A DNA stretch of 64,000 nt from a virus (IMGVR_UViG_3300037067_006298:1-64000); one strand, 5' to 3'. Numbered from the stretch's first letter, positions 43,393 to 59,248 are shown. Notes: a model not told the origin generated them from the sequence alone. A program made the numbers and translations.

Positions 43393-45684
43393 TTATGCCG
43401 ATACCGGAACTTGATTTTTTGCCGTGTCCTGAACAATACTTAAACTGGATTGAAGACCAAGTTTTTCCATATCTCTTGAATGTTGAAGTTGGGCATATTT
43501 CTCATCAATAGCTTTTTTGGCTTCATATAGTTTGATTTGTTCGTCTGTTTTGACTTTTTCCTCGTTCTCTAATAATTGATTTTTGAGTTGAATTGCTTCT
43601 TGTTCTCGTTGTTTATCTAAGTTCATATTGGCTTCTTGTAGTTTTTGTTGCTTCTCTTTGTTCTTTTTTGTTTTATAATTCAAAAATGCTTCAGCATATT
43701 TTAAACTACCAGACTCCAAAAGTCTTTCTATCATCAAAAAGTCAGCCAACTCAATTCCAATTATTCCATCCCTGTCCGGTGACATTGCCTTTGTCGCTGC
43801 ATTAAGAATACTTACTTTCCTCTCTCTCGTGGGTTTCGCTTCATATTTGATGAAGTAATTCGCATCTACGGTATCTGCACCAACGCTTATGACCTGTACC
43901 CCGATATTGCCTATTACTGGCATATATCCTGTATAGGCTTCTTTGTCGTGTTTTATAAGCAATTGCAGTCTCAGGGATATATTCTTTGCAGTTTGTTCTT
44001 TTAAGGTTATATAAGCTCCATAAATTGAGCGTAAGGCATTATTTGTTGCTGCCATTGCGATTTCCGATCCTCCTACTGACTGTTCAGGATTTGGAGTTGT
44101 TGCATCCGCTATTTGATTTATACCCGTGAGGTCACGAATAGCATTGGTATTAAATTCAAATATCGTGATGAACTCTCCAAGTTGCGCTCCGATGCCTCCC
44201 TTTAACTCTTCGATTGGATTACGTCCACTCGGGGTGTTCATTACTCCCTTATGAGTAGTTGCCTTCCAAATCAAATTACCGGTCTGTCTCTGTATTTTCA
44301 GAATTTCAAGAGGTTCCATCTTGTTCTTCCCAAGAGTCATGTTCTGTAAAGAGGTAAATTCGATAGCGATTCCGGGAGGTGATGCCATTGCAATAGCATT
44401 TTGCAACTTACAATAAGTTAGGGCTATCTGATGTAGGTGAGATTCTGAAAGACTTACAAGCGATCTGTAAGGTAGTTTATAAAGATGATACGATAATTCC
44501 ACTTCTTTCTTACCCGGACGTGGCACGTCAAACTGTAATCCAAAATCGTACACGTGATCTGTGCCTACTATCCATTTGCATTTATAAACAACTTTGATAT
44601 CAAACTTCTCAGTCTTTTTCTTATCTGTGTTATGAACTTTTCCCCATTCCTCATCATAGGTTAATTCAGTTCCGTATTGCGTTGTGCGAGTAGTACGGTA
44701 ACGACTATCTATTGAAAACCACTCACTATCCATTACATCAACAAGGAATCCATCATAAGTGCCTGAATGAGTATCCGTGCTGTATGAGTAAGTACTCAAA
44801 TCAGGATTACCGTTCATCCCTTCGTATTCCTTTGCTAATGCGAGGAGTTCTTCTTCTTTTATTTCAGGATTGAATTTACGGAGATCAGAAATAAGTACCT
44901 GAATCAACTCTCCCGCATATTCCATGTTTTTGTGATCAACCGATTTTGAGTATTGCCCGACAAAAACTGCGGGGTCAACGTATCTTACTTTTACTTTTTT
45001 GGTGTACTGATCGGTATAGTCTTTTGTTGCTGCACAATTTATCACGCAAAGGTCTCTGATTATTTGTCTCTTTATCTCTTTCCATTCAGAGATATAAAAC
45101 GTGTAATCAAGCCCCTGTTCAATCTCAATTTCCTTTGCGAGTTTAAATCCTCCGGCTCCTTCGTATAGATTTAGTTCCTCCATACTTTCAGGAACATATT
45201 CTCCTGTGCGGTCGATGCCCATAGATTGATCTATGTAATTGAGGATTTCTTTGAACTTCATCCGGTACTGCATATCCAATTTTGCAGATTCTTTTTCTTC
45301 CGTACTCGAAGGGTCAACTGCTGTTGCTACTACCTGGTGATCGGTTTGTTCCAACATCCCCTCTACTACCCTTAAAAATTTTGGCATGACAGAGAATACA
45401 TCCCAGTTGATATTCATGTAACCTGTCATCTTTGCATTGGGGTCTGCTACTTCGAGTAGTATTTTCTGATATTGACGTGGATCTTGTTTTCCGTCTGCTA
45501 ATTCTCTTAATGAAGCAAATTCACTTACGGTAGAAAATGGTATTGCGCTTTTGCCTGTCTTCCATCTTGAATACATGGCTTCGCACCACTTCTTTCCCCA
45601 TTCTTCATTTTTCTCTTTTGGATTAATGTCATCCTTTGGAAACGGATAACCTCCTTTGGTGTATTTTTCGAGCGAAACTGGCAT
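43393..45684 (-). CDS. portal protein (crAss-like)
   Basis: 763 aa after terL; ELR.LA.G.Q...Y, PKF..V..G, V.YVDP, Y...TGIN. Confidence 0.8.
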   Translation of the reverse strand: MPVSLEKYTKGGYPFPKDDINPKEKNEEWGKKWCEAMYSRWKTGKSAIPFSTVSEFASLRELADGKQDPRQYQKILLEVADPNAKMTGYMNINWDVFSVMPKFLRVVEGMLEQTDHQVVATAVDPSSTEEKESAKLDMQYRMKFKEILNYIDQSMGIDRTGEYVPESMEELNLYEGAGGFKLAKEIEIEQGLDYTFYISEWKEIKRQIIRDLCVINCAATKDYTDQYTKKVKVRYVDPAVFVGQYSKSVDHKNMEYAGELIQVLISDLRKFNPEIKEEELLALAKEYEGMNGNPDLSTYSYSTDTHSGTYDGFLVDVMDSEWFSIDSRYRTTRTTQYGTELTYDEEWGKVHNTDKKKTEKFDIKVVYKCKWIVGTDHVYDFGLQFDVPRPGKKEVELSYHLYKLPYRSLVSLSESHLHQIALTYCKLQNAIAMASPPGIAIEFTSLQNMTLGKNKMEPLEILKIQRQTGNLIWKATTHKGVMNTPSGRNPIEELKGGIGAQLGEFITIFEFNTNAIRDLTGINQIADATTPNPEQSVGGSEIAMAATNNALRSIYGAYITLKEQTAKNISLRLQLLIKHDKEAYTGYMPVIGNIGVQVISVGADTVDANYFIKYEAKPTRERKVSILNAATKAMSPDRDGIIGIELADFLMIERLLESGSLKYAEAFLNYKTKKNKEKQQKLQEANMNLDKQREQEAIQLKNQLLENEEKVKTDEQIKLYEAKKAIDEKYAQLQHSRDMEKLGLQSSLSIVQDTAKNQVPVSA

Positions 45685-45722: not shown

Positions 45723-47945
45723 TTAACTATAAGTCCTTTTCTGAAAGAAGTTGTCAAGCACATATTCCTTCTCGTTCAATTCTTCTATCTCATCATAAAC
45801 TCCACGAGTCCCAAGTAATGCATATCCCCCTGCTGTGAATAAGTCATAATTAGTCATGTCTTCAGGACCATCAATATCCCTGCACTCTTCAAGAACTTCA
45901 ATATGAGTTTCAATATCCGCCTCGTTCTCAATCCATGTCATGTACTCAGTAAAAATGTCCTGTTTTACTTTGTTTGCAGTAGTCCCGGGAGTTTTGTTTA
46001 TCTCGAAAGTTTTAGGATCAATCTTAAAAAGTAGATATTCCGAATATCCTCTTTCTACAAAATAATCCCAAAGTAACGGAACGTCTATTTCAGGGAACAT
46101 CTTTACTCCATAATACACGCACATCATAAGCATATCTTCTGCATAGATATTTTTATCAAAAGTTCTCTGTGCATAGGTGCAGACAAATTTCCGTTTCATT
46201 GAAAAATCTCCGTCTCTGATTTTTCCTTTCCTTACAACGGCTCCTCCTCCTTTTGACTTTCTATTTCCCTCTGTGATATTGAATTTGAATGGGTCTCCTC
46301 CTGCTACTCCCCAATGCGTGTTTGCGGGTTCAATTAATCCATCATCATTCCTGATCCACTTATTAGATTCACTATCATTTAATTGTTGACTGAGACGAAA
46401 TTTGCCTTGCGGATTGGCAACAAAAATAACTTTGGAATCCCTGAGATTGTCTTTCCATGCAAAATTACCTACCGCAATATCCTGTCGTGCAAAAGTCAGA
46501 TTGTCAATATAGTTTTCAACTTTGTTCATATTGAACCCTGATGACTTTGATGCGGTTCTGAAACATTCTGCAAATCGGATAGGGTATAGTCTTATGTTTT
46601 CCGATAATTTCTCTTGGTCTAACTCATACCCTTTTCGTATGTTAAGCAAATACTCGTGTGCTCCTATTTTTCTTCCGATGTATTCCGCTTGCATTTTATT
46701 TGGTGTTCCCTTTATACTCATCCCGTACGGGTCAATGAATCCCTGTAATCCATCGTCTGCCGGAATAAATAAGTTTGCAAGGCCTGACTTAGTTTGTCCG
46801 TTCGGGTTTCGTTCATAATACTTACTCATGTTGCACTGGTCTTTAAATGCCTTCCCTCCTCCTTTTTCCATCTCTCCTACGGTGGAAGTCTTAATGGTGA
46901 ATCCGATTATATCACCTCCCATTACAAGGCATTCCTTGACTACTGCGTGTCGATCCCAACAAGAAAGTCCCTTTTTAAGTTTTCCCACCTCGTCATCATG
47001 ATGAAAATATAGTTTGTCACCATCATAAGCTGACGGGTCTGCCATTTCATAATTAATACCTGATTCAAGTCCCAAGTCTGACTTTGATAATGCTCCTTTT
47101 GAAGATAGTCTGGTCGCCGGAGGTGAAAATGAAAGTTCTGTTTTCGGAGACGTTGAACCCTCGTAACTTGGTTTAAAGAAGAAAGGCAATTTCTTCCATG
47201 GCGCAACAAGGTGTCTCAGGAAGCATTTACGAGCCTGAACATCATTCATAGACTGAATCCCTCCGAAAGCTCCCATCGTTCTGCTTATAATCTCGTAGTT
47301 GATACATTCAGCCTTGTACGTTGCTCCTTCCCTACGGTGTTTTGCATAATTGAACCCAAAGAATAGTCTTCTTCCGAAGTCAACCCATTCATATTTTCCG
47401 TCTTTGTCTCTTATGGCTTTCCCTTCTGCATCTACTCTTGGTGCCTTTGTTTCGGTGTATATTTTTCTGGCGAACAAAAAGAATCTTCGATCTCTGTCTC
47501 TGTATTTTGGTAATCCTACATCAATAAACCACCATCCGCAATAGAAGTAATGCCACCCGTCAATGTATGTTGGTACTCCATTATTGTAGAACCAATATCC
47601 CTGAAGCCTTCGTCTCCATTGTAGGTCAATAAACTCTATCTCTTCAGAATAAATATCCTTGTGTTCCTCCAATTGTTCCCATATCTCATCCAAAGTCTCG
47701 TGCTTTGATTGGAGTTCCTTTAATCTCTTTGGTAATTTAGGTGGGTGCCACATCTGTTCCTTTGCCGGAAGTCCAAAATTATCAATAAGATGAGGTTCTG
47801 GAGGCACTGGTAATTCAATCTCTATCGGGAACAAATCTTTATCATCGGTATTGACAAACACACTCTTCTCTGCATCCTGATATTGTGACAATATTTGAGG
47901 ATCAACTTCTTTATAATATCTCTTTAAGAGTGCAAGGTGGTTCAT
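45723..47945 (-). CDS. terL: terminase large subunit (crAss-like)
   Basis: FYNNGVPTYIDG.HYFY, K.RREGAT Walker A region, HHDDEVGK Walker B, GGDP nuclease, E.MLM..VYYG. Confidence 0.9.
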   Translation of the reverse strand: MNHLALLKRYYKEVDPQILSQYQDAEKSVFVNTDDKDLFPIEIELPVPPEPHLIDNFGLPAKEQMWHPPKLPKRLKELQSKHETLDEIWEQLEEHKDIYSEEIEFIDLQWRRRLQGYWFYNNGVPTYIDGWHYFYCGWWFIDVGLPKYRDRDRRFFLFARKIYTETKAPRVDAEGKAIRDKDGKYEWVDFGRRLFFGFNYAKHRREGATYKAECINYEIISRTMGAFGGIQSMNDVQARKCFLRHLVAPWKKLPFFFKPSYEGSTSPKTELSFSPPATRLSSKGALSKSDLGLESGINYEMADPSAYDGDKLYFHHDDEVGKLKKGLSCWDRHAVVKECLVMGGDIIGFTIKTSTVGEMEKGGGKAFKDQCNMSKYYERNPNGQTKSGLANLFIPADDGLQGFIDPYGMSIKGTPNKMQAEYIGRKIGAHEYLLNIRKGYELDQEKLSENIRLYPIRFAECFRTASKSSGFNMNKVENYIDNLTFARQDIAVGNFAWKDNLRDSKVIFVANPQGKFRLSQQLNDSESNKWIRNDDGLIEPANTHWGVAGGDPFKFNITEGNRKSKGGGAVVRKGKIRDGDFSMKRKFVCTYAQRTFDKNIYAEDMLMMCVYYGVKMFPEIDVPLLWDYFVERGYSEYLLFKIDPKTFEINKTPGTTANKVKQDIFTEYMTWIENEADIETHIEVLEECRDIDGPEDMTNYDLFTAGGYALLGTRGVYDEIEELNEKEYVLDNFFQKRTYS

Positions 47946-48787
47946 CTTGGAAATGTATTCTTAATTACTTGTTCATAATTAATCGAGAATAAACTTTGCA
48001 TTTTATGTTCTTCTATTGATAATTTGCTGATCCACCAATAAAACGCTTCATAAGGATCGTTAAAAAACTTACTTATGCTTTTTCCCGCATTAATATTCTT
48101 TTCAATGGAATTAACTGTTGTTGTTACAAATCGTGGAAACATTTTATATTCTCTCATCCTTTGAGGTTGTTGTCCTAAAGGACACCCGATACATCCAAGA
48201 CGATGAAATCCTTTATCATAAAAATCTGAATATGCAAGATTGTTCTTATGAATGTATGCCCATATATCTTTAGTCGTCCAGTGCATAATAGGATATACGT
48301 GAATCTTATCCTTTATCCTTGTGTCGCAAACTTCCGGTTCTTTAAGTGCTAATAACCGCCTCCCTCTCTTTGATATTTTTTTTGATGTTTTCCCTCTTTT
48401 AGCCCAACTTATTTCTTCTTCCCTTGACTCATCAATTCTTAATCCTTCGTAAGTTTTTGCGCCCTTACCGACATATTCTTTTAGATGTTGACAACAAAAT
48501 CTGTTCTGCCGTGTTGGTAGTCCATATTTTTCAATCAATTCCCAAAAAGAATAACGAGGTTGAATGATTTGTACATCAGGAAAATTATTTCTGATAAACG
48601 AAATATGCCCGGGAGGATCAATAGTTGTATTTTGATAACTATATGTAAAAGCAAGTCCCGTCTTTCTGGCTAATTCTTTTAAGACAACACTATCCTTACC
48701 TCCCGAAAACTGAACAATATTTTCACGTCTTGGGTCATAAAGACCAATCAGTATTTTGATACTCTGTTTTTCTAAATCTGTATTCAT
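47942..48787 (-). CDS. PAPS reductase family protein
   Basis: FSGGKDS PP-loop; RFCC..LK; GLR..ES; PI..W....IW.YI; R.GCIGCP. Confidence 0.85.
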   Translation of the reverse strand: MNTDLEKQSIKILIGLYDPRRENIVQFSGGKDSVVLKELARKTGLAFTYSYQNTTIDPPGHISFIRNNFPDVQIIQPRYSFWELIEKYGLPTRQNRFCCQHLKEYVGKGAKTYEGLRIDESREEEISWAKRGKTSKKISKRGRRLLALKEPEVCDTRIKDKIHVYPIMHWTTKDIWAYIHKNNLAYSDFYDKGFHRLGCIGCPLGQQPQRMREYKMFPRFVTTTVNSIEKNINAGKSISKFFNDPYEAFYWWISKLSIEEHKMQSLFSINYEQVIKNTFPR

Positions 48788-50100
48788 CTTCCTCGTAATG
48801 TGTATCCTTCCTCGTCATGGTGACAAGTAAGTGTTTTAATAAAATATCCTTTTCTACCTGTCTGCTTCATTTCTTCGGTAAGTCTTATCCAAAGGTCTGC
48901 ATCTCCCGGATTCGGTGTCCCTGTGGCCTCAAATACATCCCTATAACGTAATTTAGTGTCCGAATACTTCACGCAAGAACTTGATGCTATCATTCCTCCC
49001 GGAACCGGATAAAACTCTTCTACTTCGTTATTAAGTGGCTTATATGGCAAGTGGACAGTATTGTAACTTGATGCCGTGCAGACAAAAAATGGATTTTTTT
49101 CTTCAATAACCCGATTAATGAGTTCCAAATGATTGTTTCCCCATGAGTCATCGTGGTCTAAATGGCAGATATACTCAATACCATCTTTCAAAGCATGATC
49201 TATTCCTGTAATGAAAGCCGTCAATCCTCCGCTACACCACAACTTCATGTCTCCAAATTTATACTTCTCCCTTTCTACTGAATGTGGCAAGTTGATGCAC
49301 GTTACATTTGGGTATGGTGTTATTATTGTTTTCAGTTCCATGTCGTTATCATAATGATCTCCTATAACATAGACCTGAAAGTTCTTAAATGTCTGAGAAT
49401 GGATGCTTGCGAGTGCCCGTCTGAGGTATGCAGGAGTCTTCCCGTCTGGTCTCTGATAGGTTGCGATAACAACTCCTATCTTTGCTATGTTTTTTTTAAG
49501 AATGAAGCAATTACTTTCCGTAACAGTTAATGGAAATGCACCTATCTCATTTTTCATACACCCAATAACTTCATATCTATTGCCCATACATGAGACTATG
49601 CGATCAATTGCAGGTTTTACTTCGGGACTGAACTGACTATCCATGTAATCATCAAAAACAATATATCCTCCCGGTTTCACCATCCCTGAGTACATCTCAA
49701 AGTCCTGAGTTACATCAGTAAATGAGTGTCCTCCATCAATGAATAATATATCTATGCCTCCATGAATACTATTTCTTATCCTGTTGACTATATTTACGTC
49801 ATGTGAACTCCCCTGTATGTACTCAAACTTATTTCCGGGATAATTATGTCTTAAAACATTTGCGTATGCGATATTTGGGCTTATTGGAGTTCCTGTATCA
49901 ATGGAAAATACATTAGTCTTAGGTCTTTGAGTCATAAGACATGCGCTCGCTCCCGCATAACACCCGATTTCTACATAATTTATTTCACCTTCATACATAC
50001 TGGCAATGTCATAAAGAACATGAAAGTGATGATGAAATGTTTTTACGGTCTTGCTAATCTCTGCAAGTAGATCGAGTGACTTTTGAGAATGAATTATCAT
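48784..50100 (-). CDS. class I SAM methyltransferase (Methyltransf_24-like) fused to GT2 glycosyltransferase
   Basis: VEIGCYAGAS, ILFIDGGH, LVKPGG.IVFDDY-like; VIATYQR, L.SI..QT, HLDHDDSW. Confidence 0.8.
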   Translation of the reverse strand: MIIHSQKSLDLLAEISKTVKTFHHHFHVLYDIASMYEGEINYVEIGCYAGASACLMTQRPKTNVFSIDTGTPISPNIAYANVLRHNYPGNKFEYIQGSSHDVNIVNRIRNSIHGGIDILFIDGGHSFTDVTQDFEMYSGMVKPGGYIVFDDYMDSQFSPEVKPAIDRIVSCMGNRYEVIGCMKNEIGAFPLTVTESNCFILKKNIAKIGVVIATYQRPDGKTPAYLRRALASIHSQTFKNFQVYVIGDHYDNDMELKTIITPYPNVTCINLPHSVEREKYKFGDMKLWCSGGLTAFITGIDHALKDGIEYICHLDHDDSWGNNHLELINRVIEEKNPFFVCTASSYNTVHLPYKPLNNEVEEFYPVPGGMIASSSCVKYSDTKLRYRDVFEATGTPNPGDADLWIRLTEEMKQTGRKGYFIKTLTCHHDEEGYTLRGR

Positions 50101-50825
50101 ATAAATTGTAATATTGTTTGTGATTTAAAATTAGCAAATCTCTTTTCTTCTTTATCAAAATAAGATTTATCTATCTCAAAACCAATAAAGTTAATTTCTG
50201 ATTTATATGCAGCTATTCTATTAGAACCACTTCCCAGATGAGTATCAATAACCCACATCCCACTTTCCCCAAATTCTTTATACATCAAATCATAAATTAA
50301 TACAGGTTTTTGAGTTGGATGTATTCTTTTTTCATTGAGTTTTTTGTTTCCTTGTTGTATCATTGGTTCTTTTAAACTTTTGGCTTGCATCATTCCCGCC
50401 CAAAGAAGTGGTACTGTTATTTCATAATCAATAAAACTACAATAAGCAACTTCATATCTATTAAAACTTACTCCATCGGCGACTCCTTTGTCCCATCTAA
50501 TCCTTCCGTTTCCTAACCCTGTCCAATTTACAAATTCAACTCCAAAAATTATTTGATGTCTACTGATTCTTAAAAGTTCATCAAAGTATTCCTGTCCCGG
50601 GACTTCTTTATCCCAATCTTTTAATTCATAAGGTACTTTATTTCTATTTCCATTCAATCTTGTTCCATTCTTCTGCTTTACGGTTGTGTTCATTTCTTTT
50701 AAAAATGGCATGTTTGCAACATCTTTCCCATAAGGTATGTCACAAACAGCAATATCAAATTGTTTGTCTTTAAAAGAATATATTTTATTTCTATAATCTT
50801 CATTATAGACTATACTGGTTAACAT
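50097..50825 (-). CDS. DNA N6-adenine/N4-cytosine methyltransferase
   Basis: DIPY (DPPY-like), HPTQKPV, DTHLGSGS, GFEID. Confidence 0.85.
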   Translation of the reverse strand: MLTSIVYNEDYRNKIYSFKDKQFDIAVCDIPYGKDVANMPFLKEMNTTVKQKNGTRLNGNRNKVPYELKDWDKEVPGQEYFDELLRISRHQIIFGVEFVNWTGLGNGRIRWDKGVADGVSFNRYEVAYCSFIDYEITVPLLWAGMMQAKSLKEPMIQQGNKKLNEKRIHPTQKPVLIYDLMYKEFGESGMWVIDTHLGSGSNRIAAYKSEINFIGFEIDKSYFDKEEKRFANFKSQTILQFI

Positions 50826-51523
50826 ATTATTGTTTTGTAATTACAGGTTTTTGTTTGATTGAAAATATTGGGATTGTTTTTTCTAAACTCATAATACGGA
50901 TGCCCTTTCTGGTAGTAATCCCACGTCAGATGATATGCCTTTGCACCCTTTGTTTTTACCCATCTTAATCCCTTAGATGCACATGCCATACGAAAATCAT
51001 CATCTATTGAACGGGGTGCATTAAAGAGAATGTCAAGGTCTTTATTTTGAAGTGTCATCAAATGTGCTCCACTATCACACCAGATATAATCTTTGGTTAC
51101 TTGTTTTGCTCTCGGAATCCAATCGGAAGGTTTTGCAATATGATGTGGAAAATTGCTCATATTCAAATCTACCGTGCATACCCCTACTTCCGGGTGTTGA
51201 AGTATCTGCCAAATCTCCTGAAATGTATTTGCCGTATTATTTACAAGCAAGTCTGCATCAGTAAAAGTGATATAAGGATATTGTCTTATTAATGGTTGAA
51301 AGTCTCTCAGGAATATCTTAACTGCGTTATCCGCTATATTTTCCTCGAACTGAATATATCCTTTTAGTCTTTGTTGAATTAAAAATGCCTCTATCTGTGG
51401 ACTGTTTGGACTCTTGTTTTCAACAATGAAGTAATCCTTGTTGTCCATGTACATACTCTCGAAACACTTTGCAATATGTTCGTGGTTATTATAACACCAT
51501 AATATGCAAAGATGATTATTCAT
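50819..51523 (-). CDS. GT-A fold glycosyltransferase-like protein
   Basis: YNN.E.I.KC.ES, IVENKS, FTDADL (DxD), A.HL.W. Confidence 0.55.
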   Translation of the reverse strand: MNNHLCILWCYNNHEHIAKCFESMYMDNKDYFIVENKSPNSPQIEAFLIQQRLKGYIQFEENIADNAVKIFLRDFQPLIRQYPYITFTDADLLVNNTANTFQEIWQILQHPEVGVCTVDLNMSNFPHHIAKPSDWIPRAKQVTKDYIWCDSGAHLMTLQNKDLDILFNAPRSIDDDFRMACASKGLRWVKTKGAKAYHLTWDYYQKGHPYYEFRKNNPNIFNQTKTCNYKTIIC

Positions 51524-52158
51524 TTACGATGATAATTTGGCACGATAACCCTGTCTGTGTTGTTACACGTCAGAAGTTCATTGCTTCCAATATTCACGTC
51601 AACTGTTACTCCCGCATGCACGGCACTATCGTTTCCGATATTTATGTGAGGTACCACCGATGATCTTATGCCAAAGAAGTTCCGATCTCCTATTGTGCAA
51701 TGTCCGCATACGATTGTTGCGGATAATATATTATGATTTCCTACGGTGCAGTCATGCCCGATGTCGCACCAGGGAGTAAGGTAATTGAAGTCACCAAGTT
51801 TCACATTTGCCCCGATTAGCGACCATGCTCCTACAATGTTTCCCTCTCCCTTTATCTCTGACTGAACAATACAAGATGAATGGATGACATTTGGAAATTT
51901 GGCTCCCTTTGCCTTCATTATAGCAACTACCTTTTGCCGGAAGTCAATATGTGTCATCCCAAGAACAAATACATCATCTGGCCCCGGACGATAATTGTCG
52001 ATAGTTCCAAGTATGGGATACTTCTGAAGATTGTCGTACTGCTTGTAGTATTTCCCGATGTTCTCAGGATATTCCAAGAATCCCAAGATGCCTTCAGGAA
52101 ACAAACTCATTATTTCTGATACGGCACCACCTGTGCCAATTATGATTATATTATTCAT
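51520..52158 (-). CDS. NeuD/PglD-type sugar acetyltransferase
   Basis: IIIGTGGA N-terminus, F..VIH, hexapeptide repeats with IGHDC; start at 52158 (MNNIII). Confidence 0.85.
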   Translation of the reverse strand: MNNIIIIGTGGAVSEIMSLFPEGILGFLEYPENIGKYYKQYDNLQKYPILGTIDNYRPGPDDVFVLGMTHIDFRQKVVAIMKAKGAKFPNVIHSSCIVQSEIKGEGNIVGAWSLIGANVKLGDFNYLTPWCDIGHDCTVGNHNILSATIVCGHCTIGDRNFFGIRSSVVPHINIGNDSAVHAGVTVDVNIGSNELLTCNNTDRVIVPNYHRK

Positions 52159-52795
52159 GTTGTGTATAAATTTTGTGTTTACTGAGGTCGGGGTACGGTA
52201 ACTCGATGTCCGGCATTTGTTTTTTTGTACCATTAACGTTATAAAACTTCGCCATATTGAGAAGTCCAAGAGATGCAATCATTGGATTCATGTAAAAGTT
52301 ATAACCAATCATCTTAAAAGAATCCTGAACAAGATAACCGCACTCCTCTCTTCCTGAGAAACGAGCCTTTTTAAACCACACATAAGCATCATAATTATCA
52401 GTTAAAATACACCCTCCCTTCCCCAGATTCAAGTGCTTATAAGCTCCTGTGAATGAACAACACATATAGGTATCTGGTAAGTACATATCCCCTGTGAATC
52501 TGAGTGCGGAATCCCATACTTTGCTTCCAAGTAACGGATACGCTCCTTTCAAATATCCATCTACACTTCCTGTTGGTTTATAGAACTTTACATTTCCTCC
52601 TGCATGTATGATTTCGCACGGAATTGACGGATAGGTATAGCAAGGTATAACGATATCCTTCCCTTTGATGTTATCATACATCAACGCAAGGAATATAGCA
52701 TTGCTTTGATTATCTACCGTTACACAATATGGTGCTCCGGTGTATTTGCATATTTCCTCCTCAAAAGCCCTTGTTACTTCATGCACGTTGTTCAT
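52151..52795 (-). CDS. DegT/DnrJ/EryC1/StrS PLP aminotransferase (short form)
   Basis: FEE.I..YTGA.Y...V.N.SNAI.LAL, P..TY.S, SF...YKHL..G.GG.I.TD, GYN.YM. Confidence 0.8.
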   Translation of the reverse strand: MNNVHEVTRAFEEEICKYTGAPYCVTVDNQSNAIFLALMYDNIKGKDIVIPCYTYPSIPCEIIHAGGNVKFYKPTGSVDGYLKGAYPLLGSKVWDSALRFTGDMYLPDTYMCCSFTGAYKHLNLGKGGCILTDNYDAYVWFKKARFSGREECGYLVQDSFKMIGYNFYMNPMIASLGLLNMAKFYNVNGTKKQMPDIELPYPDLSKHKIYTQHE

Positions 52796-53015
52796 AGCAT
52801 TTCTTTATTTCGTTTTCGATTAACTTAAAACTTATCAAATTTCCTACTGCCTCGTCCGGGATTATTATGTCAAACTCCCTTTCCAGAAATACAATCATCT
52901 GTACGTGATGTATGGAATCCCAATTTGAGGTATTATCCATATTGGACTGATCGGTTATTTTCTCAATAGGCATCTCGAATACCCTTGCCATAACCTTTTT
53001 TATTCTCTCATTCAT
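52779..53015 (-). CDS. acyl carrier protein
   Basis: 78 aa acidic; WDSI.HV....LE.EF.I phosphopantetheine Ser motif. Confidence 0.9.
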   Translation of the reverse strand: MNERIKKVMARVFEMPIEKITDQSNMDNTSNWDSIHHVQMIVFLEREFDIIIPDEAVGNLISFKLIENEIKKCYEQRA

Positions 53016-53982
53016 AACGGAAGTATTTTGCTGCGTGTGGTTTGTAGTCGTTACTATTTATTGTGAATATACTTTTATCATCTGTAAAGTTAAATCCAAG
53101 TTTCGGATAAAAGTCTGCCACCTGTCCATTTTTTGATGTCGGGACATAAATACCTAAAACTAATGTATCTGATTTTCGTTTCTTGTAGTCTTTCATTATC
53201 TTGTCTATAAAGGCATATTCAATGCCTCTGCCAAGTATCCGACAACTTAACAAGAATATATCTATAACTCCATGATATATTGCACATACTCCTGTCAATC
53301 CATTATCTCCAAACTTATCCTTTACCGACAAGGTATATACATATCCAGACGCCATGAATCTCTTTATATTATCCTCATTACAACGATGGGATGTCAAGTT
53401 GAATTGATTTGTCTTTTGAGTAAGTTCCACAATACGTGGGATGTGTTTCGATTCATTGACCTCTATTTTGAGCACCATGTCAAGAGATGCAAGGTATTCA
53501 TTGATGTCCGTGAATTGTTCCTTTGCTTTCGCTCTCTGGTAGTTCTCCTTGTACTGTTGGGTCTTTGTGAAATTTCCTTTGAGGTCAAAATTATCCAAAA
53601 CAACTCTCGTTAACTCTTGGGGAGTGATTGTCATTACTTCCGGCAACTGTTTCTTTACAAGTTCCCTTTCAAATTCAGAATCATCTACAAATACTATCGC
53701 ATCCAACCCGACATTAAGTTCTTCTGCAATCTCTTTCAGATTCGATGCCTTGTCGTTCCAATTAATGCGTTTTACAGAGATATATTTCTCGGTCAATAAC
53801 TGATCTTTCATTGCCTCTATCACGTCTGTTTCATTGTTCTTGCTACACAATCCAATGATTACACCATGATTTGCAAAGAATATAATATCTTGCTGCAGGT
53901 CGGTGTCGTGTTTTATTTCTTCTTCTCCAACAATCCCTTTCCATAGGGTGTTATCGCAATCAAAGATTATTGCTTTTTTCAT
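53008..53982 (-). CDS. fkbH: FkbH-like HAD-IIIC glyceryl-ACP synthase
   Basis: DCDNTLW.G, CSKN, INWNDK..N, FVDDS..E, KTNQFNL, DKFGD.G, LSCR.LGRG.E. Confidence 0.92.
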   Translation of the reverse strand: MKKAIIFDCDNTLWKGIVGEEEIKHDTDLQQDIIFFANHGVIIGLCSKNNETDVIEAMKDQLLTEKYISVKRINWNDKASNLKEIAEELNVGLDAIVFVDDSEFERELVKKQLPEVMTITPQELTRVVLDNFDLKGNFTKTQQYKENYQRAKAKEQFTDINEYLASLDMVLKIEVNESKHIPRIVELTQKTNQFNLTSHRCNEDNIKRFMASGYVYTLSVKDKFGDNGLTGVCAIYHGVIDIFLLSCRILGRGIEYAFIDKIMKDYKKRKSDTLVLGIYVPTSKNGQVADFYPKLGFNFTDDKSIFTINSNDYKPHAAKYFRYE

Positions 53983-54359
53983 TCCTTACATTTTACTAAT
54001 GAAGTACTACTTAATACCATTACTCCGTGTTGATTATGTATGTTTATTCCAAGTTTTATCTGATTAAACTTTGGCATTTTATCCATTACTTGAGCCTCTA
54101 TGGTTAACTCATCGTTCACATAGACAGGACTCAAAAAAGACATATTCTGTCTTACCCAAATTGCTCCATCTCCCGGCAAATGCATTCCTATCATTGTAGA
54201 AATAAAAGATGCCACTAACATACCGTGAACAATAGCATTTTCTCCAAAGTGTATAGAATTAGTATCGCCTGTAATTGCTACAAATGTATAGACGTCAGAG
54301 GCGTATATAGCAACTTTTTTGGACATTTTTTGTCCAATTTTAATTTCTTCGTACTTCAT
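53979..54359 (-). CDS. MaoC family (hot-dog) dehydratase
   Basis: F..ITGD.N.IH...IVHGML..S.IS, F..PVY..D.L; start 54359 overlaps fabH stop (ATGA). Confidence 0.88.
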   Translation of the reverse strand: MKYEEIKIGQKMSKKVAIYASDVYTFVAITGDTNSIHFGENAIVHGMLVASFISTMIGMHLPGDGAIWVRQNMSFLSPVYVNDELTIEAQVMDKMPKFNQIKLGINIHNQHGVMVLSSTSLVKCKE

Positions 54360-55312
54360 AGCATCCTCCATAGATTTGCTCCAAAATTGAATCCTGCTCC
54401 AACACCTACAAGCATAAGTAAATCGCCTGACTTTATGAGTTTTTTATTTACAGCCTCATCAAGTGCTATTCCAATACTTGCTGCACCGGTGTTTCCTATC
54501 TCGTCAACATTGATGTATGACTTCTCTCGAGGTATTCTCATCTTGTCAAGGATATACTCATTAAGCACCTTGTTTGCCTGATGAAAGATAAAAAAATCAA
54601 TCTCACCAATGCTAAGATTTTCCTCTTTGAGAAGTTCTTTTATTGAATATGGCATATTGGTTACTGCCATCGTCCAAGTCTTGTGTCCTTCGTGTTCAAT
54701 TAGTCCTCCTTTTTTTAATCGGGTGTCCTCGTAATAGGTTGAATCGGTACAAAAGAATGAATTGATATGCCCAATGCCGTACGGTGTCCTTCCAAGCAAT
54801 ATCCCTGATGCTCCATCACTGAAAAATGGTGCCGAATATTTATCTGTCTTGTCAGTTAGTCTCGATAGTATCTCTACTCCGATGACAATGGCATATTTTA
54901 TCTTCTGGTTTCTTCGCATGGTATCTACTGCAATATCGGATGCAGTAATGAGTCCGGTGCATACTCCGTTTACATCTATTACTTCACAATGTTTTGGACC
55001 TCCTATTGCCTGATGTATCTTTGCAGACATTGGAGGAAACACATAATCCTGACTGAAAGAGGCAATCATAATGAGTCCTATTTCTTTCGGGTCTATGTGT
55101 GGAAATCCGTCTTTGAGTAATAACTTCTTTGCCACGATAGTTGCCATAGAAGATGCCGTCTCTCCCTCTGATACATAATACCTGCGTTTTATGCCAAGTT
55201 TTGACATTATCCATTCCTCTGTCATTCCGGGAACATTCTGACATACTTCCTTATTGGTGTTGATGTTGTTGGGCAAATAACTTGCCGTTTTGATTATTCC
55301 TATTCCGTTCAT
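54356..55312 (-). CDS. fabH: 3-oxoacyl-ACP synthase III (FabH-like)
   Basis: Cys-His-Asn triad: GVCTG, HQAN, GNTGAAS; LGI..R; GAG. Confidence 0.92.
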   Translation of the reverse strand: MNGIGIIKTASYLPNNINTNKEVCQNVPGMTEEWIMSKLGIKRRYYVSEGETASSMATIVAKKLLLKDGFPHIDPKEIGLIMIASFSQDYVFPPMSAKIHQAIGGPKHCEVIDVNGVCTGLITASDIAVDTMRRNQKIKYAIVIGVEILSRLTDKTDKYSAPFFSDGASGILLGRTPYGIGHINSFFCTDSTYYEDTRLKKGGLIEHEGHKTWTMAVTNMPYSIKELLKEENLSIGEIDFFIFHQANKVLNEYILDKMRIPREKSYINVDEIGNTGAASIGIALDEAVNKKLIKSGDLLMLVGVGAGFNFGANLWRML

Positions 55313-55316
55313 ATTA

Positions 55317-55826
55317 TTATTTTAAAAGTTCAATATTCTCATAAATATTACCAATAACAAACGGAGAATAAAATTTTTGAATATCCGAATCAAAACATCT
55401 CGATAAAAGTCCCCATCTATTAAATTTATTTTTACAATAAAATGCCCCGTCCTCAAAATAAACAGTCATCGGGCCATTTTCCTTAGACATTGCGATTAAA
55501 ATATCCCCTTCGTATATTTCTTTGCCATTCTTGTCTTTCAACCCTGTAAATTCAACTACTTCGTATTCGTCTGAATAATTAAGAGACCTTGTTGCTAAAT
55601 CATCAATTGGAAGTAATCCAATTATTTGACCGTCAATAGTAAAAAATACACATTTGCCTTGAATGCGATTACATTCTTTACCGTCTTCGGAAAATTCAAA
55701 TTTGTTATCAAAAAACTGGTTAGGTTTTCCATTAGTGTAAACTCCTTTCTGCCAATCATACGGATATACTTTTAAGAAAGCTCCAGTTTCTTTATGCCAT
55801 AATTTAAACCTATGTTCTCGTTTCAT
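55317..55826 (-). CDS. YopX family protein
   Basis: FTGLKDKNGKEIYEGDIL, VIGNIYEN.ELL. Confidence 0.85.
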   Translation of the reverse strand: MKREHRFKLWHKETGAFLKVYPYDWQKGVYTNGKPNQFFDNKFEFSEDGKECNRIQGKCVFFTIDGQIIGLLPIDDLATRSLNYSDEYEVVEFTGLKDKNGKEIYEGDILIAMSKENGPMTVYFEDGAFYCKNKFNRWGLLSRCFDSDIQKFYSPFVIGNIYENIELLK

Positions 55827-56527
55827 TTATGAAGTCCTCCAAGATAAATTGTTTGCGAAGTAATATAACCTGATTTTTCTGAGCAAAAGAAGTCAATGAC
55901 ATTAGTTATGTCGTCAATGGTTGCTTTGCGTGGTATTGGGAATGTCTTAACTAACGCATCCACCGTCTCCGGCTTGTGTTGTGCAAGCATATCCGTATCA
56001 ATAGCCGATATTGCAAGGGTGTTACAAGTTATGTTCTGACGTGCATACTCTTTTGCAAGGATATTTGTCATAGTTTTCAGTCCGGCTTTGCAAGCTGCAT
56101 ACACACTGTCTCCCATTGCCTCGCACACATCCGCAATTGAACCGATGTTTATTATTCTGCCATAAGGGATGTCGTACATGAGTTTTGATGCCTCCCTGCA
56201 CACCAAAAACGGTGCGAGTAAATCCACCATTATCATTTGATATGCATCAAATCCAGGCATTTTCTGTGAGAATCTGGAAGACATAATGGCTGCATTGTTG
56301 ATACAAATATCAATTTCTGAGGTAAGTGCTTTTATCTCAGAAAATACTTTTTCTATTTCTATTGGCATTGATAAATTAACTGCATAATGACGATAATTTA
56401 TGTCATCCTGAACTTCACTTCCACTTATGCCTATTACTTTTGCATTATGGGCAAGGAAATGTTCTGCAATACTTCTTCCAACACCTCTACTTGTTCCTGT
56501 TATTAAAACTGTTTTTTCGTTGTACAT
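55823..56527 (-). CDS. SDR oxidoreductase (FabG-like)
   Basis: TGTSRGVG, NNAA, IINIGS, YAACK (YxxxK), YITSQ.I...GG. Confidence 0.9.
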   Translation of the reverse strand: MYNEKTVLITGTSRGVGRSIAEHFLAHNAKVIGISGSEVQDDINYRHYAVNLSMPIEIEKVFSEIKALTSEIDICINNAAIMSSRFSQKMPGFDAYQMIMVDLLAPFLVCREASKLMYDIPYGRIINIGSIADVCEAMGDSVYAACKAGLKTMTNILAKEYARQNITCNTLAISAIDTDMLAQHKPETVDALVKTFPIPRKATIDDITNVIDFFCSEKSGYITSQTIYLGGLHK

Positions 56528-56529
56528 AA

Positions 56530-56739
56530 TTATTGATTTAGAATATTTGGGAACACTGAAATTAATTCACCTATTCTCGGATGGTTTTCAGGATACATCC
56601 ATCCTTTCGGTAGTGGATTTTTTGCCCTGAACTCCCATTTGTTTTTTTCTTTTACAAGTTCTGTAATAACTGATAAAAAAACTTCTTCCCTTTTTGTCTT
56701 TGCTTTCATGTCATTTGTATTTAATGGGAAATATTGCAT
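56530..56739 (-). CDS. hypothetical protein
   Basis: Short ORF filling gap; start uncertain. Confidence 0.4.
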   Translation of the reverse strand: MQYFPLNTNDMKAKTKREEVFLSVITELVKEKNKWEFRAKNPLPKGWMYPENHPRIGELISVFPNILNQ

Positions 56740-57331
56740 CTCCCGGCTCCACGTGAGGTGCTGAATAAAAATTTGGTTTGCCCATATATATCCATTGTTC
56801 TGCTAAAAAACGATTAGTATGATTGAGTTCACTTATTGGAGGACATCTATTGATATACTCCCTTCGGAACCACCAGAAATTACCAGAGAAATGATTTGGG
56901 GACTTCAGATAACCAATGGAGGACACATCATAACCATTCTCTACCCTATCTCTATGTTCCTGATAGCGATTTATCAGTTGCTCATTCATCATTGATCTCC
57001 AATGATTTATAGGTACTTCAAATGGTCTGGTTACTGCTTTGGTGTGGAAATATAATCCTACATACTGTGAGTCATCTGCCTCGATTAGCCTGAGTGTAGG
57101 AAACTCGTAGTCCTCTGGTCTGTTTGAGTAATATTTGATTTTTAACTTCGGGTACACGTTAACAAAATACTTTTCAAGAAAGGCTTTCTGGTCTGGCGCA
57201 CCAATGCACCCAATGTTTATTTCCTCACATTCGTCATAAAGTCCTGACGTAAGTAATATGCGCATTTGATCTGTAATTACCGTGTACCAATGCGATACCA
57301 TCCAAATATGCCAAAACACTTTTGCTGTCAT
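56711..57331 (-). CDS. glycosyltransferase-like viral protein
   Basis: FWHI, YEFPTL, LYFHTK, W...M, HFSGNFWW....YI, R..AEQWI pattern seen in viral glycosylation islands. Confidence 0.5.
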   Translation of the reverse strand: MTAKVFWHIWMVSHWYTVITDQMRILLTSGLYDECEEINIGCIGAPDQKAFLEKYFVNVYPKLKIKYYSNRPEDYEFPTLRLIEADDSQYVGLYFHTKAVTRPFEVPINHWRSMMNEQLINRYQEHRDRVENGYDVSSIGYLKSPNHFSGNFWWFRREYINRCPPISELNHTNRFLAEQWIYMGKPNFYSAPHVEPGDAIFPIKYK

Positions 57332-57966
57332 TTGTTTTCTTCTTTAAATGCTGGTTCTCCGTTCTGTGCCCTCTTTGCAAAGTCCTCCGGTCTGAGTGCA
57401 ATTCTTTCGTCCTCCAAGCAACGAAGCATTTCGTCTTTCAGATAGGGATTTGAGTCTTGGTTGAGCATTTCCAAAAGATTCTCTTCCAAATTATCCCTTA
57501 GTTCTGCAAGTTTAGAAATGCTTTTTGTTTCTCCTGACTGTATTTCGAGCATGAGATTGCAATAGGCAGTCTCAATACTGATTTGATATGCGTACTTGTA
57601 CGACCTATGGAGCATAACATATTGGCAAATCTTCTGATTAACCACCTTATTTTTCCCCTTTAGAAAATCTTCAACTACCGGTTCAAACACTCCTCCTCCT
57701 TCTACTTTGAAATCACAATCGTGTGCTACTTCAATTTTCCTCTTTAGTACATCAGAATATTTTCTGCGATATGGAGAATGAGCATCATACATACATAACA
57801 CGTATTGCATCACCTTGGTATTGTCAAGACTTTCTCCCGGATTTGCTCTGAACTCTTTTATTTTTCCAAGGTCCTTGTAGAATTTAAGAATATCCGTACC
57901 GTCTGGTACTTTTGTCGGATCGAATCTCATTTGAGAATACTCCTTCGGATGGAACTGCCCTTTCAT
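57328..57966 (-). CDS. conserved hypothetical, possible small terminase-like protein
   Basis: Y...MYD..SPY motif; start 57966 overlaps upstream stop (ATGA); function inferred from position only. Confidence 0.4.
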   Translation of the reverse strand: MKGQFHPKEYSQMRFDPTKVPDGTDILKFYKDLGKIKEFRANPGESLDNTKVMQYVLCMYDAHSPYRRKYSDVLKRKIEVAHDCDFKVEGGGVFEPVVEDFLKGKNKVVNQKICQYVMLHRSYKYAYQISIETAYCNLMLEIQSGETKSISKLAELRDNLEENLLEMLNQDSNPYLKDEMLRCLEDERIALRPEDFAKRAQNGEPAFKEENK

Positions 57967-58550
57967 AATATCCAATTTATATACGGTTTGCCTTCGTAAT
58001 TTCTGTCCCATACAAACCATGCAAACGGAATCATACCTCCGTTCTTGTGAGTGCCTGCATGTATCCCAAAATTTACACGCTTACTGAATTGATAAACGCA
58101 TTTCAGGGGAAATTTCTTATCCTGAAACATCTCATATCTCTTTGCTCCTTCAAGGAAGGCGGTTTTCAGAAACATTGCTATTTTAATCTGAGAATATTGT
58201 TTTGCTTGAAAAACAAATTCCAATGCAAGGTCGAATGGAGGATTTGTTATTATGTTATCCACGGCAGGGAATGGTGCCGAAAATACTGAGTTATCATTTA
58301 AGAAATCTATATCCGGAACACCGTATCCATAGTTGTTAAGGTCCGAACTTTTGACATCATATCCTTGTTCAATAAGAACTTTTGATATATCTCCCATGCC
58401 ACAGGCAGGTTCCCATACACTCCCCTCAAATTTTTCATGTAGCAATAATGCTTTTGTTGCACTTGGAGGTGTCGGATAAAAATCTGCCTTGGATCTTCCA
58501 AGCCGACTATTATCGCCTGCTATCTTTCTAGCTGTATCTACTGAACTCAT
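57963..58550 (-). CDS. adenine-type DNA methyltransferase-like protein
   Basis: DFYPTP, WEPACGMG.IS, SSDL, ITNPPF, AWFVW. Confidence 0.8.
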   Translation of the reverse strand: MSSVDTARKIAGDNSRLGRSKADFYPTPPSATKALLLHEKFEGSVWEPACGMGDISKVLIEQGYDVKSSDLNNYGYGVPDIDFLNDNSVFSAPFPAVDNIITNPPFDLALEFVFQAKQYSQIKIAMFLKTAFLEGAKRYEMFQDKKFPLKCVYQFSKRVNFGIHAGTHKNGGMIPFAWFVWDRNYEGKPYINWIL

Positions 58551-59248
58551 ATTTTGGCAAGTAAATTGCGTCTCTGAACTCTGAATAACTTCACCCCGTT
58601 GTTGATCTTCTGATGCATATCGTATTGCAAAGGAATATCATGGGTCTTTCTGATGACCACTACATCACCCACCGCTACATCAACACCCCTGTCGCTCTGA
58701 AATTCATCAACATAAGCTCTATTGGGTGTTCCAAGGTATTTTATCTTGCCGTACGTCACCTGATTGCTGATCTTCCGTCCCAGAACTACTAACTCCATTC
58801 CAAGTGCCTTCATTCGTTCTCTCTCACGTGTTATTGCGGGATCTTCAACCGGCTCAATCAGGCAAAATCCATTTACAGGTATCACTTGCTCTCCACGTAC
58901 TATTGCATACACGTTGTCATAACTCACGAAGATATACTTGTCCTCACCTTCCAGAATATACCTTTTGTTCCGTGGATTAAGTGCGTTGATAACGGATAAA
59001 TAATACAAGATTACTTTGTCGTGCATCCTAAGTTCCATGTCGCATAACCACGGCATGTCAAGGTTTGGCTTACCAGAATATTTCAAGTGCGAAGGCAATC
59101 CCCATATCTCCCCTGTTACAACTGCGTTCTTCTCTGCTTCAAAAGTATTATCCAAATAAAGTTCACAACCGTTCTTCAATTTTATTGAGGTATTGTCGGG
59201 ATCAAGTTTGATAAAGACAAAATTATTTAAACAGACTTTTGGTTTCAT
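58547..59248 (-). CDS. tandem GroES-like protein
   Basis: Two repeats: NNFVFIK...G.I...P...D.V and NGFCLIEP...GKIKY.G...V.VGDVV. Confidence 0.6.
   Translation of the reverse strand: MKPKVCLNNFVFIKLDPDNTSIKLKNGCELYLDNTFEAEKNAVVTGEIWGLPSHLKYSGKPNLDMPWLCDMELRMHDKVILYYLSVINALNPRNKRYILEGEDKYIFVSYDNVYAIVRGEQVIPVNGFCLIEPVEDPAITRERERMKALGMELVVLGRKISNQVTYGKIKYLGTPNRAYVDEFQSDRGVDVAVGDVVVIRKTHDIPLQYDMHQKINNGVKLFRVQRRNLLAKI

Follow-up and report, generated by a model that had tools for sequence, protein, structure and literature searches.

Within a 64,000-nucleotide stretch of viral DNA (IMGVR_UViG_3300037067_006298:1-64000; hereafter the window, which is the first 64,000 bases of a viral record of 76,666 bp), we identified a minus-strand cassette of five genes (52779-56527) that encode a short-chain dehydrogenase/reductase (SDR), a FabH-type condensing enzyme, a MaoC-type dehydratase, an FkbH-type loader and an acyl carrier protein (ACP). 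This acyl cassette is one branch of a larger, hypervariable glycan island, where it adjoins genes for a predicted sugar aminotransferase, a candidate N-acyltransferase and glycosyltransferases. Judged from these families and their arrangement, it is fairly probable that a short hydroxy-acyl group, primed by FkbH and held on the ACP, is N-transferred to a nucleoside diphosphate (NDP)-4-amino sugar, which would then be used by soluble phage glycosyltransferases.

Composition of the acyl cassette

An earlier note on this DNA, made from the sequence alone, had reported five genes with intact catalytic motifs at these coordinates, and our analysis bore out the positions, the families and the residues; all features given below likewise lie on the minus strand. 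In searches with the corresponding profiles, TIGR01686 (FkbH), PF01575 (MaoC) and both KAS III Pfam domains (FabH) were passed, whereas the PP-binding profile (PF00550) fell short at 19.8 bits against a cut-off of 20.8.

The FkbH-type HAD-IIIC loader (53008-53982; 324 aa), a predicted glyceryl-ACP synthase, scores 239.7 bits against TIGR01686 (cut-off 146.65) and was recovered by the same model at 240 bits in a genome-wide search. Its HAD half matches B. fragilis BF1531 (PDB 3slr), and the HAD DxDNT motif (D8, D10, N11, T12) and the S246-C247-R248 triad are invariant in four phage sequences. In contrast to its bacterial homologues of 584-588 aa, the phage protein lacks an N-terminal extension of ~215 aa. 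The dedicated ACP (52779-53015; 78 aa) is encoded directly after FkbH in every phage and bacterial locus compared. Its best match to the NCBIfam ACP models reaches E 4e-09, with all scores below their cut-offs, and its phosphopantetheine site (W32-D33-S34) is invariant, including the serine, in seven phage and bacterial homologues; by these features it is a diverged ACP.

MaoC (53979-54371; 130 aa) is a stand-alone hotdog dehydratase (PF01575, 47.8 bits, cut-off 27) whose hydratase-2 motif GDxNxxH has Asp36, Asn38 and His41 invariant. The FabH-type enzyme (54356-55312; 318 aa) belongs to the beta-ketoacyl-ACP synthase III (KAS III) condensing enzymes, with both domains above their cut-offs (ACP_syn_III_C, PF08541, 99 bits; ACP_syn_III, PF08545, 51.1 bits) and full-length matches to the FabH of Aquifex (7e-45) and E. 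coli (7e-43). Its catalytic Cys, His (HQAN) and Asn (GNTGAAS) are present both in the translation and in a full-length alignment to PDB 2ebd. Scores below the housekeeping cut-offs of NF006829 (236.1 against 249) and TIGR00747 (208.5 against 292.1) indicate a specialised paralogue rather than the enzyme of fatty-acid synthesis. The SDR (55823-56527; 234 aa), a FabG-like ketoreductase, matches adh_short (117.5 bits) and adh_short_C2 (124.4 bits), retains the TGxxxGxG, NNAA and YxxxK motifs, and has FabG as its nearest solved structures (E 1e-33). Against TIGR01830, the FabG equivalog, it reaches 153 bits (cut-off 297.75), and its identity to the stand-alone SDR encoded in the bacterial cassettes described below is ~50%.

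Most junctions in the string do overlap, as previously noted, but the five genes are not contiguous: a YopX-family phage gene that the earlier note did not mention (55317-55826; 169 aa; PF09643, 60.1 bits; TIGR01671, 44.4 bits; phrog_98) splits the SDR from FabH. The overlaps measure 4 nt (SDR/YopX), 16 nt (FabH/MaoC), 4 nt (MaoC/FkbH) and 8 nt (FkbH/ACP), with a gap of 4 nt between YopX and FabH. The YopX gene is absent from this position in the related phages L003, L004, L008 and L115, and it is not a pathway enzyme.

Phage context and conservation

The 76,666-bp record has direct terminal repeats and is rated complete, nearly all genes of the window lie on the minus strand, and GC content is even across the island (0.35-0.38). 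Directly downstream, on the same strand, stand the genes for the large terminase subunit (TerL; 45723-47945; phrog_6681, E 2.5e-73), which marks the downstream boundary of the island, and the portal (43393-45684); phage genes occupy both flanks. From 57331 down to TerL (45723), genes overlap or abut with a sole gap of 183 nt (56528-56710). The same junctions are found in independent assemblies from ENA, JGI and NCBI. Because the record is complete and terminally repeated, the flanks are same-strand phage genes, GC is even and the insertion site recurs in independent assemblies, the cassette DNA is phage DNA; the earlier note had taken it as such, rather than as a bacterial island or a mis-assembly, and was right to do so.

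The same cassette occupies the same site in at least five different genomes of related phages, which come from independent samples. The gene order from DUF8361, at the upstream edge of the island, to TerL is shared by loci from IMG/VR (L003, L004/L005 and L008), NCBI (L115; 76,487 bp) and ENA (L117-L119; ~72 kb), with amino-acid identities of 42-84% across the cassette. Nonsynonymous differences per site (pN) range from 0.11 to 0.41 against saturated synonymous values (pS) of 0.58-0.94, and dN/dS is at most 0.27 where dS was computable; the cassette is under purifying selection. Since the same set occurs in the same order in related phages, with pN below the saturated pS, the cassette is more than a chance assemblage. 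In the sequence collection, 44 blocks contain one DUF8361 cluster derived from such phages, and 28 of these blocks hold contigs of 50-200 kb.

Within this conserved frame, gene content and identities vary. MaoC is 82% identical to its counterpart in L004 and 42-43% identical to those in L003, L008 and L115, while FabH and the neighbouring beta-helix enzyme are 82-84% identical to L008 and 53-62% identical to L004, a mosaic that suggests module exchange through recombination between phage cassettes at gene borders. In L003 (9182-16848), the ACP is followed by a GNAT, FdtA, a Polysacc_synt_2 4,6-dehydratase, a miniature DegT, five GT2-type genes and a methyltransferase; in L120 (1251-13174), it is followed by a GNAT, a full-length DegT, FdtA and GT2 genes. 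L116 (10630-17880) has no acyl cassette and encodes several methyltransferases, a miniature DegT, a GT2, a TOD1/MUCI70-type protein and a second DUF8361. The stretch from DUF8361 to TerL is thus a hypervariable glycan island upstream of TerL.

L120 also encodes an 837-aa protein with a polysaccharide-deacetylase domain just beyond DUF8361. At 152,182 bp, this JGI contig has roughly double the length of 76 kb, and it may represent a phage of the group assembled as a concatemer rather than a larger genome.

Predicted aminotransferase, N-acyltransferase and glycosyltransferases

The ACP gene overlaps a gene for a predicted, miniaturised DegT-type sugar aminotransferase (52151-52795; 214 aa; PF01041, 61.5 bits, cut-off 19.8), which is followed by a NeuD/PglD/VioB-type gene and by glycosyltransferases. 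The pyridoxal phosphate (PLP) lysine of the miniature DegT, K120, is invariant, its AlphaFold2 (AF2) model has a mean confidence (pLDDT) of 93.5, and its fold matches give TM-scores of 0.60-0.67 over the query. The top listed matches are sugar-nucleotide PLP enzymes, mostly aminotransferases (ArnB, PseC, perosamine synthase). It is the sole aminotransferase in L003, where it stands beside FdtA and the 4,6-dehydratase, and a full-length DegT replaces it in L120. The family is large: a search limited to proteins of 117-375 aa returned 5,586 homologues, and the best 120 of these, mostly on phage-sized contigs and 62-89% identical, measure 206-223 aa, bar one 323-aa fusion. Among sugar genes, members were also found in a 250-kb phage-like contig (L122) and, as gp172, in Flavobacterium phage immuto (NC_055915), a cultured phage that has both the miniature DegT and the beta-helix enzyme and for which the phage search gave no FkbH match.

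The next gene (51520-52158; 212 aa) encodes a predicted NeuD/PglD/VioB-type left-handed beta-helix N-acyltransferase (TIGR03570, 108 bits, cut-off 160.8; Hexapep), a candidate acyl-ACP:amino-sugar transferase. Its start is the ATG at 52158, and relatives use the equivalent ATG. The nearest solved structures are the 4-amino-sugar N-acetyltransferases PerB, PglD and VioB, and the acyl-ACP-dependent LpxA is matched as well. Phage cassettes always stand beside an aminotransferase and a dedicated N-acyltransferase, either beta-helix or GNAT.

Synteny with DegT, the NeuD/PglD/VioB-type enzyme and glycosyltransferases, along with the GNAT and FdtA genes of L003 and L120 and the bacterial locus L036 described below, supports the amino-sugar destination that the earlier note had proposed. 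Its suggestion that FabH acts as the acyltransferase fared less well: by structure match the enzyme is KAS III-like, and because every variant encodes its own dedicated N-acyltransferase (beta-helix or GNAT), we down-weighted FabH for this role; as far as sequence can tell, it is more likely a condensing enzyme than a transferase.

Three further proteins are candidate glycosyltransferases. DUF8361 (56711-57331; 206 aa), the upstream island edge, has a GT-A nucleotide-sugar-transferase fold (AF2 pLDDT 94.8) and homologues with PF27674; its fold matches are GtrB, DPMS, ArnC, RmlT and TarI/IspD, at TM-scores of 0.5-0.6. A conserved 234-aa protein (50819-51523) is weakly GT-A/GT2-like, with Glycos_transf_2 at E 0.054 as its only match; it is 59-71% identical to proteins at the same position in L004, L008 and L115, and its L120 counterpart is a faint GT2. 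A 438-aa protein (48784-50100) fuses a CmcI/rhamnosyl-O-methyltransferase-like domain to a GT2 (Methyltransf_24, 59.8 bits; RMNT_CmcI, 36 bits; Glycos_transf_2, 34.6 bits), and this methyltransferase-GT2 fusion lies directly before TerL in relatives.

Bacterial counterparts and origin of the cassette

We fetched 80 bacterial and archaeal loci with FkbH homologues. The order SDR-FabH-MaoC-FkbH-ACP was found in eight of them (L036, L038, L084, L092, L035, L090, L095 and L106), at 34-56% identity to the phage proteins, with no MaoC match detected in L035. The locus L036, from a Chitinophaga metagenome-assembled genome (MAG), encodes FdtA, a small open reading frame (ORF), an SDR, a metallo-beta-lactamase (MBL)-fold protein, FabH, a MaoC::SDR fusion, a 584-aa FkbH, an ACP, an AMP-ligase, a GNAT, DegT and a GT2; together these genes are predicted to make a 3-amino-3,6-dideoxyhexose that bears a special N-acyl group. 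The phage genes are orthologues, 37-56% identical, of the SDR-MBL-FabH-MaoC::SDR-FkbH-ACP-AMP-ligase cassette found in bacterial polysaccharide or flagellin sugar loci, of which L036 is an example; they keep its order and likewise stand beside amino-sugar genes (in L036 FdtA, DegT, an N-acyltransferase and a GT2). They differ in the missing N-terminal extension of FkbH, the unfused MaoC, the lack of an MBL-fold gene and of a ligase, the single ACP and the viral location.

Many other bacteria have MaoC(-SDR)-FkbH-ACP without FabH. MaoC therefore goes with FkbH, and the extension step that FabH and the FabG-like SDR would perform looks like an addition to this core. In a FastTree phylogeny, in which supports are SH-like only, six distinct phage FkbH sequences formed one clade (support 100), sister (94) to cassettes of Chitinophagales/Bacteroidia, and the clade holding both comprised Bacteroidota and phage rows only (96). 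The phage sequences are 37-46% identical to bacterial FkbH. This topology fits a single capture of the cassette from the host phylum.

Proposed pathway and acceptor

The genomes show directly which genes are present, that their catalytic residues are conserved, that they lie in a phage, that related phages retain them and that they are syntenic with sugar genes; the chemical steps, the acyl structure and the acceptor proposed here follow from knowledge of the families. The phage ACP would be phosphopantetheinylated by the host, and FkbH would load it with a glycolytic C3 unit from 1,3-bisphosphoglycerate to give glyceryl-S-ACP. MaoC, which adjoins FkbH in phages and in many bacterial loci, would dehydrate the glyceryl group towards a pyruvoyl/lactoyl-type unit. 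KAS III and the FabG-like reductase could then add one malonyl unit, drawn from the host, and reduce the beta-keto group, yielding a short C3-C5 hydroxy-acyl-ACP. In parallel, the miniature DegT would aminate a host-supplied NDP-4-keto-6-deoxy sugar, and the NeuD/PglD/VioB-type beta-helix enzyme would shift the acyl group from the ACP onto the sugar amine. The acylated sugar would finally be taken up by the soluble GT-A enzymes of the phage, namely DUF8361, the 234-aa protein and the methyltransferase-GT2 fusion.

Searches of the phage's own genome recovered no phosphopantetheinyl transferase (PPTase), NDP-sugar 4,6-dehydratase or nucleotidyltransferase. As the phage is without these enzymes, the host must supply both holo-ACP formation and the NDP-keto sugar. 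Membrane-helix prediction found no helices in the island enzymes and, across the genome, no large multi-pass protein of the size of a flippase, polymerase, GT-C or priming transferase. Because such proteins are lacking and the island forms one overlapping gene string with TerL and the portal, our tentative preference is for an acceptor in the cytoplasm, with virion proteins the likeliest, a possibility that we put somewhat short of even odds.

Several observations weigh against the proposed N-acylation of an amino sugar. The ACP, FabH, SDR and NeuD-type enzyme all score under the curated NCBIfam cut-offs of their named families, and are by these scores diverged specialists. The miniature DegT is ~150 residues short of the canonical enzyme (usually ~360-400 aa), with one internal segment and the greater part of the C-terminal domain missing; it is nonetheless probably active as an aminotransferase, given its PLP lysine, its confidently modelled fold, its position as sole aminotransferase in L003 and the full-length DegT that substitutes for it in L120. 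The usual donor for NeuD/PglD-type enzymes is acyl-CoA. The phage also lacks the MaoC-fused second SDR, the MBL-fold gene and the AMP-ligase of the bacterial loci, and its acyl product may accordingly differ from theirs. A class I S-adenosylmethionine-dependent methyltransferase (290-303 aa) that relatives encode between FabH and MaoC (e.g., L004:6755-7627) is missing here, and the acyl product may differ by methylation between close relatives. Finally, promoter and terminator scans were uninformative, with sigma-70 promoters, terminators and the Bacteroidota -7 box not enriched over shuffles, so the limits of the operon are drawn from gene packing alone.

Neighbouring genes

The gene next upstream of DUF8361 (57328-58020) has no assigned function, and is followed on that side by a DNA methyltransferase (57963-58550). 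A second DNA methyltransferase (50097-50825) lies between the 234-aa protein and the methyltransferase-GT2 fusion, and a PAPS-reductase-like gene (47942-48787) between that fusion and TerL. These two methyltransferases and the reductase-like gene are interleaved with the glycan island, and the relatives compared are without matching homologues; the L115 island holds a different N6_N4 methylase. Further upstream, the 233-aa protein u233 (58547-59248) was weighed as an island member and then set aside as a Cpn10-like viral protein. This assignment is a lead from an atlas feature search without alignment, in which the nearest clusters were viral proteins and 35-55% of their members had a Cpn10/GroES domain. 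The 183-nt gap before the SDR contains a 69-codon ORF (56530-56739), which runs into the end of the DUF8361 gene and has no L004 counterpart at that position. The distant relatives of TerL are terminases of Flavobacterium, Cellulophaga, Maribacter and Tenacibaculum phages. A megablast search with positions 50000-57000 as the query found zero matches among cultured and deposited phages, and PADLOC, run on ten island proteins, gave zero defence-system matches.

Alternative explanations

One alternative keeps the chemistry and moves its destination: the acylated NDP-sugar, or the phage glycosyltransferases, would feed an undecaprenyl phosphate-linked O-antigen or capsule pathway of the host, and the remodelled surface might, e.g., exclude other phages or free progeny from debris. 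Several features are in keeping with such a role, among them the derivation of the cassette from Bacteroidota loci, the surface-polysaccharide character of L036, the common action of GT2 enzymes on lipid-linked intermediates, the resemblance of DUF8361 to GtrB/ArnC/DPMS-type GT-A domains and the reliance of the phage on host sugar precursors. However, the lack of membrane anchors in the island enzymes and of flippase, polymerase, priming transferase and GT-C in the genome, together with the overlapping gene string shared with TerL and the portal, points away from a lipid-linked pathway, and the up to five or six glycosyltransferases in relatives are enough for a whole glycan rather than a single decoration; we consider a host-surface role unlikely. 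It is quite improbable that the island instead serves to hypermodify the DNA of the phage, by adding a sugar or an acyl group, as a protection against restriction. DNA methyltransferases and a PAPS-reductase-like gene are indeed interleaved with the island, which also adjoins packaging genes, but the methyltransferase at 50097-50825 and the PAPS-reductase-like gene are without counterpart in L004/L005, L008, L117 and L120, and that at 57963-58550 is unmatched in the relatives compared, the methylase in the L115 island being a different one. Moreover, a search of the phage's own genome found no thymidylate-synthase-type hydroxymethylase, the sugar O-methyltransferases and many GT2 genes of relatives are typical of oligosaccharide assembly, and the bacterial counterpart L036 stands among sugar-pathway genes.

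FkbH, a dedicated ACP and a FabH-like enzyme are also the hallmark trio of tetronate pathways, and since all three are present here, the cassette could be thought to make a free tetronate- or butenolide-type molecule from glyceryl-ACP and a beta-ketoacyl thioester, acting as a signal or antibiotic during infection. We regard this as very improbable: the annotated neighbours are sugar and phage genes, with no polyketide synthase (PKS) or fatty-acid synthase chain supplier and no tetronate tailoring gene among them, FabH is closest to housekeeping KAS III, and the cassette is always joined to an aminotransferase, an N-acyltransferase and glycosyltransferases in phages, as also in bacterial L036. 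Prospects are poorer still for an auxiliary module of lipid metabolism by which the phage would raise or redirect type II fatty-acid synthesis of the host. The closest structures to the cassette's FabH and SDR are those of FabH and FabG, respectively, and PHROGs lists FabG-like genes as auxiliary metabolic genes; yet FabH, SDR and ACP all score below the housekeeping equivalog cut-offs, FabD, FabF, FabI and FabZ are absent, FkbH has no role in fatty-acid synthesis, and the cassette is linked to sugar genes. An artefact, in the form of a bacterial island or a chimeric assembly, might be suspected from the fact that the closest non-viral homologues are bacterial. It is effectively refuted by the complete, terminally repeated record, the same-strand phage flanks, the even GC, the recurrence of the junctions in ENA, JGI and NCBI assemblies, and the separate clade that phage FkbH forms at 37-46% identity to bacterial FkbH.

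Distribution of FkbH among viruses

A co-occurrence survey of phage databases found the full five-gene set confined, within IMG/VR, to this phage lineage. FkbH itself is rare in deposited phages, with two matches among 50,697 phage records, both unannotated faecal 'Bacteriophage sp.' entries. IMG/VR yielded 30 loci with FkbH, 13 of which lie outside this lineage and also have an adjacent ACP. The unrelated viral contigs with FkbH have no FabH and no full five-gene set, and PHROGs has no family for FkbH, MaoC or FabH. The earlier note had known of no characterised phage example, and a literature search likewise returned no description of a phage FkbH/ACP pathway. We also found no published enzymology for an FkbH/ACP route to acyl amides on surface sugars, nor an enzymatically characterised bacterial pathway of this kind.

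FkbH with an adjacent ACP, sometimes accompanied by DegT, was observed on a range of unrelated viral contigs (L002, L009, L011, L013, L014, L019, L021, L028, L029, L031, L033 and L034), one such FkbH/ACP contig being a 75-kb human-faecal phage record (MT835480). Three giant-virus MAG contigs (L015, L024 and L032) encode FkbH, with no ACP detected.

Comparison with known systems

The chemistry of bacterial surface sugars that bear glyceroyl, lactoyl or hydroxy-acyl amides is well known, and glyceroyl-type acyl groups are among those found on Campylobacter flagellar glycans. FkbH/ACP glyceryl loading operates in the methoxymalonyl and tetronate pathways, and loading of the trans-acyltransferase (trans-AT) PKS BryA for bryostatin follows an FkbH-dehydratase-ketoreductase-ACP logic. 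Like the BryA loading module, the phage cassette pairs an FkbH loader with its own ACP, to be followed by dehydration and reduction of the glyceryl group; it differs in consisting of free-standing, type II-like proteins, in having a MaoC hotdog enzyme in place of the dehydratase domain, in lacking a PKS and in the predicted delivery of its product to a sugar. In Campylobacter jejuni NCTC 11168, the FkbH-domain gene cj1302 lies in the flagellin glycosylation locus (PMC7099621).

The O-polysaccharide module wfpC-wfpG of Flavobacterium psychrophilum, a member of the same phylum as the phage host, resembles the phage island in combining a dedicated ACP, KAS genes, a ketoacyl-ACP reductase and a PglD-type beta-helix acyltransferase (PMC6519341). 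In the account given there, the PglD homologue is predicted to take a 3,5-dihydroxyhexanoyl group from an O-antigen-specific ACP, on which it is built by the KAS and ketoreductase, and to act on a 4-amino-4,6-dideoxy sugar from a predicted PglE-type aminotransferase (PMC6519341). Unlike the phage set, that module is chromosomal and serves a Wzy-dependent O-antigen; it is predicted rather than reconstituted, and the portion of the paper drawn on here names no FkbH or MaoC (PMC6519341).

Virus-encoded glycan synthesis as such is already known, and what is new here is the ACP-dependent acyl branch. Giant viruses have amino-sugar pathways, and virus-encoded glycosylation systems share with this phage a set of soluble glycosyltransferases and methyltransferases near structural genes, without export machinery. 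We know of no ACP-dependent acyl branch in such systems. Capsid glycans are reported for the mycobacteriophages Che8 and Rita (Freeman et al. 2023, as cited in PMC11256854), a precedent for virion proteins as the acceptor. Our searches likewise turned up no acyl branch of this kind in those systems, and in the phage group described here virion glycosylation is a prediction from genes.

Implications

Speculatively, the phages of this group, putative crAss-like phages of environmental Bacteroidota, may coat their virions with a serotype-like variable glycan containing an amino sugar that bears a hitherto undescribed FkbH-primed, KAS III-extended polyhydroxy-acyl group. In that case the island would be to these viruses what an O-antigen locus is to bacteria, and would diversify as modules are swapped; we hold this broader picture to be possible but doubtful. 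The phage set of five enzymes plus carrier, aminotransferase and transferase offers a convenient minimal system for reconstitution, and the miniature DegT family, with its thousands of metagenomic homologues, is of structural interest as a minimised PLP enzyme. More generally, the island indicates that phages carry whole acyl-sugar pathways beyond glycosyltransferases, in a hypervariable island within the packaging-gene string. If virion proteins are the acceptor, a widespread environmental phage group would bear a variable glycan coat, which would affect how hosts are recognised, how stable the particles are and how lectins or the immune system recognise them.

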